Source: a virus
Taxonomy: Duplodnaviria; Heunggongvirae; Uroviricota; Caudoviricetes
DNA length: 26,221 bases
Strand: one strand, 5' to 3'
Virus record (IMG/VR): IMGVR_UViG_2617270943_000001
Coordinates: 1 to 26,221 of that record
The translations under genes were made by a program, and so were the position numbers. Below are positions 15,814 to 19,755 of the stretch, piece by piece; position 1 is the stretch's first letter, and each line of letters opens with the position of its first letter. The notes under the pieces were generated by a model that saw only the letters and a program-made list of their open reading frames with translations, was not told the DNA's origin and ran no database searches.

Positions 15814-15965
15814 AAAAATAAAGGGTAATATATAACAGAAGGTTTGTATAGTTAGAAGCAAGGTTGTGCTTCTAAAGGAAGTGGCTTGAGGGAGCCACTT
15901 ATATGTTGGGGAGGCAAAGCCTCCCACAACATATCTTTTAGTAATCAAATTAGAACTGGTAAACC
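15814..15965 (-). ncRNA. Candidate small RNA between the porin 3' end and the minus-strand terminator (IpeX-like position)
   Basis: Three perfect 8-bp hairpins (15853..15874, 15879..15900, 15901..15934) plus the terminator hairpin in under 180 nt, co-directional with the porin gene. The DLP12 sRNA IpeX is reported at the nmpC 3' end; sequence identity not verified. Confidence 0.25.
15901..15940 (+). terminator. Rho-independent terminator on plus strand (candidate tR' of the late operon)
   Basis: Extended hairpin ATATGTTG-GGGAGGC-AAA-GCCTCCC-ACAACATAT followed by CTTTT, about 140 nt downstream of Q. Confidence 0.5.
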
Positions 15966-17032
15966 ATACCTACAGCAACGATATCATCGGTAGCAACGCC
16001 AGATGCTTTCGTGAAATCGCTCTTATCAATCAGGTTGATTTTGTAGTCAACAAAAGTGGACATATTTTTGTTGAAGTAATAGGTTGCACCTACATCAACA
16101 TATTCAACCAGGTCCTGATCACCCCAAACACCCAAGTCTTTTCCTTTAGAATGCAGGTAAGCAACGGATGGACGCAGGCCGAAGTCGAACTGATATTGTG
16201 CAACAGCTTCGAAGTTTTGTGCTTTGTTGGCAATATGGTTATTACCAAAAACAGTCATGTTCTGGGTTTCAGAATAGGTGGTGGCCAGATAGATGTTGTT
16301 CGCATCATATTTCAGACCAGCTGCCCATACTTCAGCATTTTGACCAGAAGCATTCAGACCGTTGTTACCGTAGATAACCTGATTATTAGTGCGATCAGAT
16401 TTAGCATAGGTTGCACCCACGCCGAATCCTTCATACTCATAAGTAGTTGAGAAACCGAAACCATCGCCATTAGCTTCAGTTACTTCATTTCGGTCATTTT
16501 TGCCCTGATACTGAGCTGCAAAGTTCAGGCCATCAACCAGACCAAAGAAGTCGTTGTTACGATAAGTTGCAACACCTGTGGTGCGACCAGTCATGAATAC
16601 ATCTGTTTGGGTCCAGGTATCGCCACCGAATTCTGGCAGAACGTCAGTCCACGCACCGATGTCGTATGCTACACCGTAGTTACGGCCGTAATCGATTGAG
16701 CCGTAGTCACCGAATTTCAGGCCTGCAAATGCAAGACGGGTTTTGTCTTTGGAGGAACCTTGAGATTCAGCGCGGTTGCCTTTGAATTCATATTCCCACT
16801 GACCGAAACCAGTCAGTTGATCGTTGATTTGGGTTTCACCTTTGAAGCCAAGACGGGCATAAGTAGTATCACCATCATCTGCATCATTAGAGGAGAAGTA
16901 GTGCTTAGCATTAACTTTCCCGTACAGATCCAGCTTGTTACTGTCTTTATTATAAATTTCAGCTGCCTGAGCAGACATCGCCATCAGTACTGATGCAGCT
17001 ACAGCAGAAATTGCCACTGTTAATTTTTTCAT
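15950..17032 (-). CDS. nmpC: General porin of the OmpC/OmpF/PhoE family (NmpC/Lc-type phage-encoded porin), 360 aa
   Basis: Signal peptide [29 protein letters not shown], porin motifs and C-terminal VGMVYQF. Encoded antisense to the late operon between Q and the lysis genes, as in DLP12 and PA-2. Confidence 0.9.
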
Positions 17033-17620
17033 CGTGAGCCCTTTTTTTTGAACTATTATTAAAAAATGATGTCACTGCGCGATAAATATTCATCTAATCA
17101 ATGTGATTATTTCAAGATGTAAGTTTTAGTTTCTCATTTAATTTGTGAAGTAGATCTCTATTTTTATCTGAACTTTTTCTATCGAAACCTATTTATGGCT
17201 CTTATTTGAACAAAAATAAACCTATTAGCTAATTTATATTAATGGCTGTTATTTATGGGGGTTCTATAATTCGGCAGTTTAATTTAAATCAACTAAAAAT
17301 AACGTCTGAAATTATTTATTGGTTATTTGTTGAGGTTTTCTTATGTATTTGTGGTGGAGTTTTGAACACTCGGTAGCATTCTCATAAATATCATTCAGCG
17401 GTTTACGTACGTAAAAAATTGGTTATGCTGTTAAGAGTGGTTACTTCGTCACACAGCTTAAACCCGCCGTCGAGCTGGTTTTTCCATTTTTTGAGTCTCG
17501 ATATTAGCTGATAACTCAATACCTGAGTTATTCACTGACTCCGAGTCTGTTACGTTTCTGCTTTTTTGCGATACGTTGTATTCCCTCAATTTACACCCGC
17601 TTTGTCTGCGAGGTGGGGTT

Positions 17621-17836
17621 ATGAAATCCATGGATAAGTTAACAACGGGTGTCGCCTATGGCACCTCAGCAGGTAGTGCCGGTTACTGGTTTTTACAGCT
17701 GCTCGATAAAGTCACGCCCTCACAGTGGGCAGCAATAGGTGTGCTGGGTAGCCTGGTATTTGGCCTGCTGACGTACCTGACAAACCTTTATTTCAAGATT
17801 AAAGAAGATAAGCGCAAGGCTGCGAGAGGTGAATAA
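17621..17836 (+). CDS. essD: Class II holin (phage 21 S-type pinholin) with dual-start motif MKSM, 71 aa
   Basis: Translation [71 protein letters not shown] matches S21; two TM segments; Met1/Met4 dual start. Confidence 0.85.
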
Positions 17837-18333
17837 TGCCTCCATCATTACGAAAAGCCGTTGCTGCTGCTATTGGTGGCGGAGCAATTGCTATAGCATC
17901 AGTGTTAATCACTGGCCCAAGTGGTAACGATGGTCTGGAAGGTGTCAGCTACATACCATACAAAGATATTGTTGGTGTATGGACTGTATGTCACGGGCAT
18001 ACAGGAAAAGACATCATGCTCGGTAAAACGTATACCAAAGCAGAATGCAAAGCCCTCCTGAATAAAGACCTTGCCACGGTCGCCAGACAAATTAACCCGT
18101 ACATAAAAGTTGATATACCGGAAACAACGCGCGGCGCTCTTTACTTGTTCGTTTACAACGTGGGCGCTGGCAATTTCAGAACATCGACGCTTCTTCGCAA
18201 AATAAACCAGGGCGATATCAAAGGCGCATGTGATCAGCTACGTCGCTGGACATATGCTGGCGGTAAGCAATGGAAAGGTCTCATGACTCGTCGTGAGATT
18301 GAGCGTGAAATCTGTTTGTGGGGTCAGCAATGA
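17836..18333 (+). CDS. rrrD: SAR (signal-anchor-release) endolysin, lysozyme family, 165 aa
   Basis: Gly/Ala-rich N-terminal SAR segment ([20 protein letters not shown]) followed by a lysozyme domain; TAATG overlap with the holin stop. Confidence 0.85.
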
Positions 18334-18797
18334 ACAGAGTAACCGCGATTATCTCCGCTCTGGTTATCTGCATCATCGTCTGCCTGTCATGGGCTGTTAA
18401 TCATTACCGTGATAATGCAATCGCCTACAAAGAACAGCGCGATAACAAGGCCAGTGAACTGGAGAAGGCGAACGCCACCATTACTGACATGCAGCAGCGC
18501 CAGCGTGATGCTGATGCACTCGATGATAAATACACGAAGGAGTTAGCTGATGCGAAAGCTGAAAATGATGCTCTTCGGCGCAAGCTTGATAATGGTGGTC
18601 GGGTGCTCGTCAAAGGAAAATGCCCTGTGCCATCCTCAGCCGAAACCTCCAGCGCCTCCGGCATGGGCAATGATGCCACCGTCGAACTCTCTCCAGTTGC
18701 TGGACGAAACGTTCTCGGTATCCGGGACGGAATTATCCGCGACCAAACAGCACTGAGAACGCTTCAGGAATACATCAGGACGCAATGCCTTCGATGA
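18330..18797 (+). CDS. rzpD: Spanin inner-membrane subunit Rz, 155 aa
   Basis: N-terminal TM segment followed by a coiled-coil-rich periplasmic domain; ATGA overlap with the endolysin stop; Rz1 embedded in the +1 frame. Confidence 0.8.
18550..18756 (+). CDS. rzoD: Spanin outer-membrane lipoprotein subunit Rz1 (embedded within Rz)
   Basis: Lipoprotein signal with VVGC lipobox, then Pro-rich [16 protein letters not shown], entirely inside Rz in a different frame. Confidence 0.7.
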
Positions 18798-18970
18798 TAG
18801 CGATAATTTTACTCATCATCCTTCACATCTGGCTCTGTAGACAGGGTGGTGCTCACTTCTGGAGTGAATCCAGATTAAACATCTCATTGCTGATGCTTGA
18901 TATTGAGCATTTTGCGCGCGGTAAGGGGCTGCGTTGAGATAAGAGCCAGTCATTACAAATACCAGGATTT

Positions 18971-18996
18971 AGCCTCGCATTCGCGGGGCTTTTTAT
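18971..18996 (+). terminator. Rho-independent terminator after the lysis cassette
   Basis: AGCCTCGC-ATTC-GCGGGGCT hairpin (one G-U pair) followed by TTTTTATT. Confidence 0.5.
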
Positions 18997-19288
18997 TGCC
19001 ATTACAAAAGCCACTTCCTACAGAGTGGCTTTGATAATGGCTTATACCCTACACGGGATAACTTAACTGATATCCCTTTTAAAGGATAAAGGTATTCAAG
19101 CCTGACACATCATGCGCTGTATCGTCGCCGTATTCCCGTATTAACAGAGACCGTAGCCCGACGGGGAACTCCTTCTGCGCGAGTGTGTGGGAATAATCAA
19201 AAACGATGCACACCGGGGTTACCGGGTACACATATTTCATCATGCCAGCGAGTCCGGTTCTGGCACGGAAGAAACCGGACGTTATGAT

Positions 19289-19699
19289 TTAGTGCGGAAA
19301 TATTTGTGTAGTGTTCTGAATGTTCTCAGTAAAGAGTAATGAATTATCAAAGGTATAGTAATACCTTTTGTTTTCGTGGATATTTGTAATCCATCTGAAA
19401 ACCCCTGCTGTAGCAAGATTTTTCCTGTATTCGTAAAATGATAACTCTCCTGATTTGAATCCTTTTAAGGTGGCTTCTATAAGGCATTTATTTTTTGAAA
19501 ATCTTACATTTACAACCTTACCCTGTCCTTTTATTAAAACCGTATTATCGTTTTCAAGAACAAGATGAATATTCTCTGTGGCTAAATAGTAAATGTAATG
19601 TGAGACATTGTGACGTTTTAGTTCAGAATAAAACCAGTGATAGTTTAAATTATTTCGCACTTTATCGAATATTTGTTTAAAAATGGCAACCTGAGCCAT
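19289..19699 (-). CDS. ybcV: YbcV-like protein, 136 aa from ATG at 19699
   Basis: Translation [18 protein letters not shown]...[24 protein letters not shown] resembles DLP12 YbcV; GGAAGG Shine-Dalgarno 7 nt upstream; AT-rich; opposite strand to late genes, in the position occupied by bor in lambda. Confidence 0.7.
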
Positions 19700-19755
19700 T
19701 GTAGTACCTTCCATGTGATATGAGGGGTGTAGTCTGCACGATTATCTAAATTGCT

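Follow-up and report, generated by a model that had tools for sequence, protein, structure and literature searches.

The lysis cassettes of lambdoid and P22-like phages are usually given as four genes, which encode a holin, an endolysin, an i-spanin, and an o-spanin. In phage 21 and its relatives, the holin is an S21-type pinholin that depolarises the inner membrane. Such a pinholin has two transmembrane domains, the first of which leaves the membrane so that heptameric pinholes can form. Published work on phage 21 describes for such a cassette a lysis route with a pinholin and a signal-anchor-release (SAR) endolysin, in contrast to the route of lambda. Accessory small membrane proteins are also known from lysis cassettes and include antiholins, LysA and LysB of P2, LydB of P1, and the Mu releasin. 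The present analysis concerns a 26,221-nt stretch of virus DNA (Caudoviricetes; IMG/VR record IMGVR_UViG_2617270943_000001, positions 1 to 26,221), hereafter the window. Its subject is a small open reading frame (ORF) that follows the spanin genes of the lysis cassette (18785..18937, + strand, 50 aa).

The cassette of phage 21 and of the Escherichia coli K-12 prophage DLP12 (essD-rrrD-rzpD-rzoD) has the same gene order and gene families as the window. DLP12 and the window share 93.6% nucleotide identity over 17500-18574, a stretch that begins upstream of essD and reaches the middle of Rz. The homology stops at 18574 and resumes at 19113, and the interval 18575-19112 is another mosaic segment. 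There the window has a different C-terminal half of Rz with its Rz1, and after it the small ORF, a terminator, and a hairpin. K-12 DLP12 has at this place an Rz end like that of lambda, and borD on the other strand. The small ORF itself has a described counterpart in gene 65 of phage Sf6 ('similar to Sp3 ECs0822'), which belongs to PHROG 11822. This is the same ORF, with 90-100% amino-acid identity and the same overlap with the Rz stop codon, and the window copy is a member of the Sf6 gp65 family with no difference in kind. No function annotation is recorded for any member of Sf6 gp65/PHROG 11822. The predicted product resembles the accessory lysis proteins in being a small membrane-associated late product within or at the end of a cassette. 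In contrast, it has no sequence similarity to holin, antiholin, or spanin families in Pfam, PHROGs, and NCBIfam.

The small ORF is likely to be translated, judging from its substitution pattern and gene order, and it is probably a genuine fifth gene of the lysis cassette that encodes a small membrane protein. Its family is already catalogued and uncharacterised. By its nucleotide conservation, the ORF also carries a superimposed constraint at the RNA level, and it is followed by a conserved RNA that is predicted to be structured. The original prediction, which was made from the letters of the window, had proposed an extra small membrane protein of the cassette. Synteny and substitution pattern favour this proposal, while the membrane protein stands only as a predicted product.

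Position, relatives, and coding signature of the small ORF

The small ORF has two in-frame start codons and ends with the stop codon TGA at 18935-18937. From ATG 18794 the frame has 47 codons (18794..18937) and overlaps the Rz stop codon (ATGA), as had been predicted. From ATG 18785, which is the start used by RefSeq, it has 50 codons. A Shine-Dalgarno (SD)-like AGGA motif (18777..18780, + strand) lies 4 nt before ATG 18785 and 13 nt before ATG 18794, and its duplex energy with the anti-SD sequence is -4.3 kcal/mol. An open frame of 47-50 codons is by itself not rare. The frame had been thought to be unannotated, which is incorrect. The Prokaryotic Genome Annotation Pipeline (PGAP) gives it as WP_001139678.1 'hypothetical protein', it is equivalent to Sf6 gene 65, and it matches phrog_11822 (E=1.8e-36) over positions 1-50 of 50, with the function of this PHROG given as unknown.

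The product consists of a hydrophobic helix, an IWLCR motif, a variable linker, and a C-terminal ARGKGLR. The strongly hydrophobic N-terminus that was originally described is confirmed, and the hydrophobic stretch measures 13-18 residues. An identity as o-spanin was rejected, as the only Cys is preceded by I-W-L and does not lie in a lipobox ([LVI][ASTVI][GAS]C), there is no basic n-region, and the true Rz1 is already embedded in Rz. In the GenBank record of phage HF4s (2486-2653), Rz carries the label 'Rz1 i-spanin' and the small ORF the label 'Rz2 o-spanin', which looks like a mis-annotation. Literature searches with ECs0822, WP_001139678, peptide strings, and spanin-linked small proteins returned nothing relevant to the small ORF.

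The word-indexed protein search and the genome-contig scan, which gave 6 loci, reached close relatives only. A full hidden Markov model (HMM) profile search of 1.84 billion representative proteins was the sole search to reach the Klebsiella forms. It returned proteins of 44-46 aa, e.g., MLLLFILLSIWLCRLSEKPSWFKVSHIISMLALEDEHPARSKGLR, which have 44-47% identity to the window protein and share with it L-x-IWLCR, W26, S34, L36, and the C-terminal AR(S/G)KGLR. A scan of viral contigs contributed 70 further loci, 65 of which have exactly 45 codons, with a Met nine residues before IWLCR. The Klebsiella 45-aa forms match phrog_11822 with E values of 5e-11 to 8.5e-15, and the named distant members comprise Klebsiella pneumoniae phages and Salmonella phage SEN22. 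Several of the 6 loci from the genome-contig scan are near-identical copies of this E. coli phage segment on contigs binned as metagenome-assembled genomes of Bacillota, Cellvibrionaceae, and Collinsella, probably through mis-binning.

In these relatives, a distance of -1 to 35 nt separates the ORF from its upstream neighbour, which belongs to the spanins of phrog_13, 312, 5672, or 1275. In one class of relatives this neighbour is a 66-aa PHROG 8494 protein that comes after an endolysin-like ORF. The nearby endolysins differ, with an R21-like SAR enzyme in one class and an unrelated type in others, and the genes downstream of the ORF vary. Klebsiella phage ST16-OXA48phi5.2, for example, has the order Q, tRNAs, holin, lysozyme, Rz, small ORF, an unnamed ORF, and large terminase. 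The position of the ATG does not change although the sequences upstream of it are unrelated, and it is usually preceded by an SD-like motif (e.g., GAGGT, 5-6 nt upstream). Behind the PHROG 8494 protein this motif is weak, and there are few independent upstream contexts. Conservation in related cassettes was the test set beforehand for the ORF, and the ORF is kept in phages of Escherichia, Shigella, Salmonella, and Klebsiella and behind non-homologous spanins.

Copies close to that of the window, here called the E. coli type, are common in E. coli. Of 5426 complete E. coli genomes, 1962 (36%) carry the 234-nt module 18762-18995. The 50-codon frame is intact in 100 of 108 loci that were sampled solely by the Rz end, and the ORF is intact in 244 of about 249 loci that were sampled solely by the 3' block. 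E. coli-type copies are 86-100% identical, with one indel event inside the 153-nt ORF versus several in the following 58 nt. A tblastn search of 50,697 phage records found the small ORF at 90-100% identity in 44, including Sf6, HK620, epsilon34, g341c, CUS-3, Sf101, and mEp460/043/213. In Sf6 and HF4s the same ORF follows Rz in cassettes with a lambda-type S105/S107 holin, and the tie to the pinholin pathway that had been assumed does not hold. In a rare recombinant, the small ORF passes after its first 8 codons into unrelated DNA, which still yields a frame for a 37-aa hydrophobic peptide that ends in a hairpin. Enteropathogenic E. coli (EPEC) E2348/69 is among its carriers. The 37-aa allele was rejected as a separate class and taken as a one-off recombinant, as it occurs in 11 of 5426 E. 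coli genomes and in 0 phage records.

The ratio of non-synonymous to synonymous rates (omega) of the small ORF is ~0.6 (p ~0.05) among the E. coli-type copies. With the same method, omega is 0.09 in S, 0.21 in R, and 0.38 in Rz where no overlap occurs. The pairwise ratio of non-synonymous to synonymous differences per site (pN/pS) is 0.65, and a codon test on these copies finds frame +1 similar to frame 0. The E. coli-type evidence for coding is thus suggestive and not decisive, and distant relatives were examined for this reason. The wider-family codon test used 35 unique 45-codon sequences. In codons 1-14 of this set, synonymous events number 15 and non-synonymous events 10 (omega ~0.24, p=4e-4). 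Codons 7-14 of the 45-codon form, the block that closes with IWLCR, have 6 synonymous events and no non-synonymous event (p=5e-4). The last 10 codons have an omega of 0.59, which is not significant.

The window and the Klebsiella consensus have 59% nucleotide identity. Between them, pS is 0.76 and pN is 0.23 in codons 2-14, the middle has 0.57 and 0.51, respectively, and the C-terminal block has 0.37 and 0.14. The hydrophobic codons have a constant T at the second position and vary at positions 1 and 3, and the two clades use different codons, CGA and AGA, for the conserved Arg. Of the six frames, frame 0 has the smallest pN/pS (0.56; others 0.71-1.39). The minus-strand ORFs 18816-18953 and 18853-19014 were rejected together with the reverse frames, as their pN/pS is worse than that of the small ORF. 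Taken together, the cross-genus and substitution results point to translation as the best explanation.

The small ORF would be translated from the late transcript through coupling to the end of the spanin gene. The predicted product of 45-50 residues would comprise an N-terminal hydrophobic helix that closes with the invariant IWLCR, a fast-evolving linker, and a conserved basic C-terminal helix that ends in AR(S/G)KGLR. The C-terminal part would face the cytoplasm according to the positive-inside rule. From synteny alone, we infer an accessory envelope role during lysis, e.g., the tuning of holin or spanin action or of timing.

Several observations weigh against a fifth lysis gene. Among the 50,697 phage records searched, the small ORF is present in 44 only, and neither lambda nor P22 is among the 40 listed of these 44. 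K-12 DLP12 is also without it and has borD in that slot. The absence from K-12 DLP12 and from most phage records indicates that the ORF is dispensable for lysis. The family is narrow and was found by the profile and contig searches in Enterobacteriaceae phages only. The constraint in the E. coli type is weak, and the central 21 codons of the distant set are neutral (omega ~1.06). In the 45-aa forms, the hydrophobic stretch has only ~13 residues, which is short for a transmembrane helix. The AF2 model of the product shows two helices, 3-20 and 25-46, in a helix-turn-helix arrangement at low confidence (pLDDT 67). Ribosome profiling, proteomics, or genetics for the small ORF were not found in the literature, which thus offers no direct evidence of translation. 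The four-fold sites in two 30-nt blocks are nearly invariant, and the conservation runs past the stop codon.

RNA-level conservation and downstream elements

The two blocks, 18810-18839 and 18915-18944, have a mean pairwise nucleotide identity of 0.91-0.95, versus 0.40-0.47 in the spanin genes. The 10 nt after the stop codon, GATAAGAGCC (18938..18947, + strand), are non-coding and nearly invariant in all 36 unique sequences of the family. This extension past the stop codon and the nearly invariant four-fold sites suggest that part of the conservation acts at the nucleotide level and not on the protein. The spacer after GATAAGAGCC varies in length, whereas the length, start, and stop of the ORF are fixed.

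The stop codon and the following 3 nt (TGAGAT, 18935-18940) are complementary to ATCTCA (18881-18886). In the RNAalifold prediction, the ATCTCA/TGAGAT helix encloses two small hairpins, and its arms are invariant and thus show no covariation. In the wider family, a long-range pairing, CUGGCUCU/AGAGCCAG, shortens to 6 bp, and its arms are invariant. The hairpin GUCGAU/GUCGAC of the first block is found in the Klebsiella type only and is disrupted in the E. coli type, which nevertheless retains IWLCR. The loss of this hairpin with retention of IWLCR suggests that the protein is the more general constraint. The fold z-score of 18785-18955 is -1.4, and the ORF region folds no better than its shuffles. 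The wider region 18760-19040 reaches -3.96, which is due to two terminal hairpins.

A direct repeat, CATTACAAA, occurs in two copies on the + strand (18951..18959 and 19000-19008) and brackets the terminator segment. Relatives without 18960-18999 have the ORF joined straight to the hairpin, which suggests a gain or a loss of the terminator through recombination at the CATTACAAA repeat. The terminator-like hairpin, AGCCTCGCATTCGCGGGGCT with the tail TTTTTATT (18971..18997, + strand), comprises an 8-bp stem with 6 GC pairs, a 4-nt loop, and a T-run, and by sequence it has the features of an intrinsic terminator. The terminator scan, which picked up the hairpin and T-run at 18971-18990, gave 2 sites in the region versus 2.6 expected and is not significant alone. 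The stem is supported by conservation, as the same stem is present after some Klebsiella-type ORFs. The hairpin at 18971 had been regarded as the end of the operon. This view is contradicted by nohD and the terminase gene, which lie downstream on the same strand. In lambdoid phages, the Q-modified polymerase is expected to read through such a terminator.

Downstream of the terminator lies an extended hairpin, CATTAC...GATAATG (19000..19039, + strand), which has 5 bp, a 2x2 internal loop, and 9-10 bp, and is present as a single copy in the window. It follows the ORF in most family members of both Escherichia and Klebsiella phages. Among 14 distinct sequences, 98% of the alignment cells are paired, compensatory changes occur at 7 of the 14 pairs, and the observed values are not reached in any of 500 shuffles. 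The probable role of the extended hairpin is to mark or stabilise the lysis message at its 3' end. Some family members have a canonical terminator (GCCTCGC...GCGGGGCTTTTT) in place of it. The E. coli type has both, with the terminator between the CATTACAAA copies, an arrangement that resembles an insertion at the hairpin base. The GATAAT in the 3' arm of the extended hairpin is a good -10 hexamer, and no -35 element is evident.

A search of the window against Rfam found nothing at the gathering threshold, and no family was found at the ORF in 20 Klebsiella-type loci. STnc560 was rejected as a homologue, with 19.9 bits versus a threshold of 55 and an alignment that passes through two hairpins only. 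A match to mir-458 on the minus strand over the hairpin is likewise sub-threshold (24.7 bits; threshold 59). A cos/pac or other packaging site was rejected as an explanation of the conserved blocks, as they are carried by cos-type and headful (Sf6, HK620) phages alike and their distance to the terminase genes ranges from ~70 nt to 1.4 kb.

Alternative explanations

The conserved unit could be an RNA element of the lysis transcript, in which a three-way junction closed by AUCUCA/UGAGAU and the extended hairpin would serve 3'-end formation, processing (e.g., by RNase III), or stability, and the ORF would be incidental or weakly translated. Such an element is consistent with the high nucleotide identity of the two blocks relative to the spanin genes, the invariant four-fold third positions, the conserved 10 nt after the stop codon, and the predicted local helices that take in this codon. 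The strong covariation of the downstream hairpin, and the canonical terminator that replaces or joins it at the same position, also agree with this explanation. However, the helices inside the ORF are almost without covariation (covariation term -2.95 kcal/mol, with 3 of 5 double changes in the terminal hairpin), and the fold of the ORF region alone does not exceed that of shuffles. The GUCGAU/GUCGAC hairpin is lost from the E. coli type while IWLCR persists, and the N-terminal third combines saturated synonymous divergence with conserved amino acids. The ORF is fixed in length, start, and stop next to a spacer of variable length, and the best Rfam match at the site, STnc560, is far below its threshold. 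An RNA element with an incidental ORF is considered unlikely. A related proposal joins both kinds of constraint, so that the small ORF and its structured 3' region would form an unrecognised unit of the lysis cassette. The output of the coupled peptide would be limited by the fold of the mRNA, with the stop codon sequestered in the AUCUCA/UGAGAU helix and the extended hairpin behind it, and the peptide would tune lysis timing via membrane potential, holin, or spanin. This proposal is speculative and rather unlikely.

The remaining explanations deny the ORF a role in lysis. Similarity to the window has its left limit at 18762 in 43 loci with another Rz type and its right limits at 18959/18960 or 18994-19001, with at least 6 downstream contexts. 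This tight clustering of mosaic breakpoints would fit a conserved junction between lysis and packaging modules that is kept by homologous recombination in lambdoid and P22-like phages, with a functionless ORF. The location of the segment between these modules in both cos-type and headful phages, with differing holin and endolysin types, would fit as well. Breakpoints at gene borders are nevertheless expected around any functional phage gene. Recombination also leaves unexplained the kept frame, the start codon, the hydrophobic second positions, the synonymous bias of codons 1-14, and the free divergence of the middle of the segment without indels, and a junction of this kind is improbable. A moron-type or toxin-like membrane peptide unrelated to lysis is slightly less probable still. 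It would act in lysogenic conversion or superinfection exclusion, or as a depolarising peptide like a type I toxin with translation-limiting mRNA structure. Here, bor (lambda, K-12 borD) is the obvious comparison, as it occupies exactly the same slot, flanked by Rz and the DUF1398 gene (ybcV in K-12, with a homologue in the window). In contrast to the small ORF, bor is on the opposite strand, encodes an unrelated lipoprotein, and has its own promoter. The small ORF resembles the type I toxin genes hok and ldr in its predicted peptide of ~50 aa, a hydrophobic N-terminus, and a nucleotide-conserved mRNA with predicted local structure, and in the E. coli type a separate terminator comes straight after the ORF. 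In contrast to hok and ldr, no antisense RNA gene was found, and no antisense promoter was recognisable when the sequence was read by eye. No sigma-70-like promoter is present on the + strand in 17000-19259, and no toxin, defence, or other family in Pfam and NCBIfam matches the product (PADLOC was not searched). The tight coupling to the spanin stop codon, with a gap of -1 to 35 nt, points to expression from the late operon. A chance frame in recently spread DNA, conserved by recent ancestry only, is very improbable. It would agree with the high identity of the E. coli-type copies, their omega barely off neutral, and one divergent lineage with W16R, L17P, and a pN/pS of 1.17. It is already disfavoured by the cross-genus data, as frame, length, and motifs persist behind unrelated spanins in relatives that are 59% identical in nucleotides and 44-47% identical in amino acids.

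Lysis genes, prophage setting, and significance

The lysis cassette of the window is of an ordinary and already known kind. Family matches identify it as the phage-21/DLP12 type that had been predicted, with pinholin, SAR endolysin, and embedded spanins. The gene essD (17621..17836, + strand, 71 aa) encodes an S21-type pinholin/antiholin, which matches PF04971 'phage P21 holin S' (E=2e-35) with residues 5-67 spanning the entire profile, as well as phrog_9876 and the phrog_20 holin. The name essD is that given in an identical genome. The product starts with MKSM at ATG 17621, where the predicted dual start is read as M1 and M4 with a Lys between them (antiholin from Met1, holin from Met4), and it has two hydrophobic stretches. 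The position 17576, from which the lysis region had been counted, is merely an upstream in-frame TTG and not the start of the holin, for which the real start codon is ATG 17621.

The next gene, rrrD (17836..18333, + strand, 165 aa), encodes a SAR endolysin of the GH24 lysozyme family (PF00959, E=3.6e-44). The enzyme is identical to RrrD (PDB 4ZPU) in 163 of 165 residues. Residues 1-103 are identical throughout and include the N-terminal Gly/Ala-rich segment, in agreement with the predicted SAR domain. The lysozyme chain 3HDE (165 residues), which we take to be R21 of phage 21, also matches over its full length with a score nearly equal to that of 4ZPU. The catalytic Glu-Asp-Thr residues are present as E35, D44, and T50 in the translation.

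The i-spanin gene Rz (18330..18797, + strand, 155 aa) matches PF03245 (E=3.8e-29) and phrog_13 (E=1.2e-74). These matches place its product in the i-spanin family, of the type with an N-terminal transmembrane domain and a coiled-coil periplasmic domain. The o-spanin lipoprotein gene Rz1 (18550..18756, + strand, 68 aa) matches PF06085 (E=3.8e-21) and phrog_3198. It has a lipobox, VVGC, is read in the +1 frame of Rz, and lies wholly inside Rz as expected, and is thus an embedded o-spanin. Rz1 is missing from the feature table of the identical RefSeq genome PM4-5, while K-12 annotates the equivalent gene as rzoD.

As a DLP12-family lambdoid prophage of E. coli, the window is a fuller relative of the K-12 cryptic prophage DLP12, with an adjoining tRNA-Arg gene and an intact integrase. 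The region 17500-19300 has 100% identity to several E. coli chromosomes. In strain PM4-5, which has the identical genome, the annotated order is ninE, ybcO, rusA, ylcG, quuD, porin, essD, rrrD, 'lysis protein', and a 153-nt 'hypothetical protein'. These are followed by DUF1398 and YlcI/YnfO genes on the opposite strand, and then by nohD and the large terminase. The OmpC/NmpC-type porin gene (15950-17032, - strand, 360 aa) lies between quuD and the lysis genes and is intact in the window, whereas the K-12 DLP12 copy is split by IS5. The DUF1398 (YbcV-like) protein gene (19289-19714, - strand) matches PHROG 413 (E=1e-89), the label of which, 'head protein', seems unlikely for a moron-like gene on the opposite strand. 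Overall, the window (1-26221) is far more complete than the K-12 DLP12 copy. The identical genome also contains exo/bet/gam, an S24 repressor, replication genes, emrE, ybcK, a terminase, a head-tail joining protein, and a portal, with ylcJ annotated as frameshifted.

The small ORF would add a fifth, conserved, and apparently coding gene after the spanins of a very well-studied gene set, and the ORF is present in the model phages Sf6, HK620, CUS-3, and epsilon34. If it is translated, its product would be an overlooked component of late-stage envelope events. If it is mainly an RNA element, it would mark the ending or processing of the lysis message ahead of the packaging genes. If the peptide and its structured 3' region do act as one unit, they would represent a new class of lysis regulator in Sf6, HK620, CUS-3, epsilon34, and about one-third of E. 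coli genomes. Whether protein or RNA, either outcome would lead to a better annotation of a very common 'hypothetical protein'.

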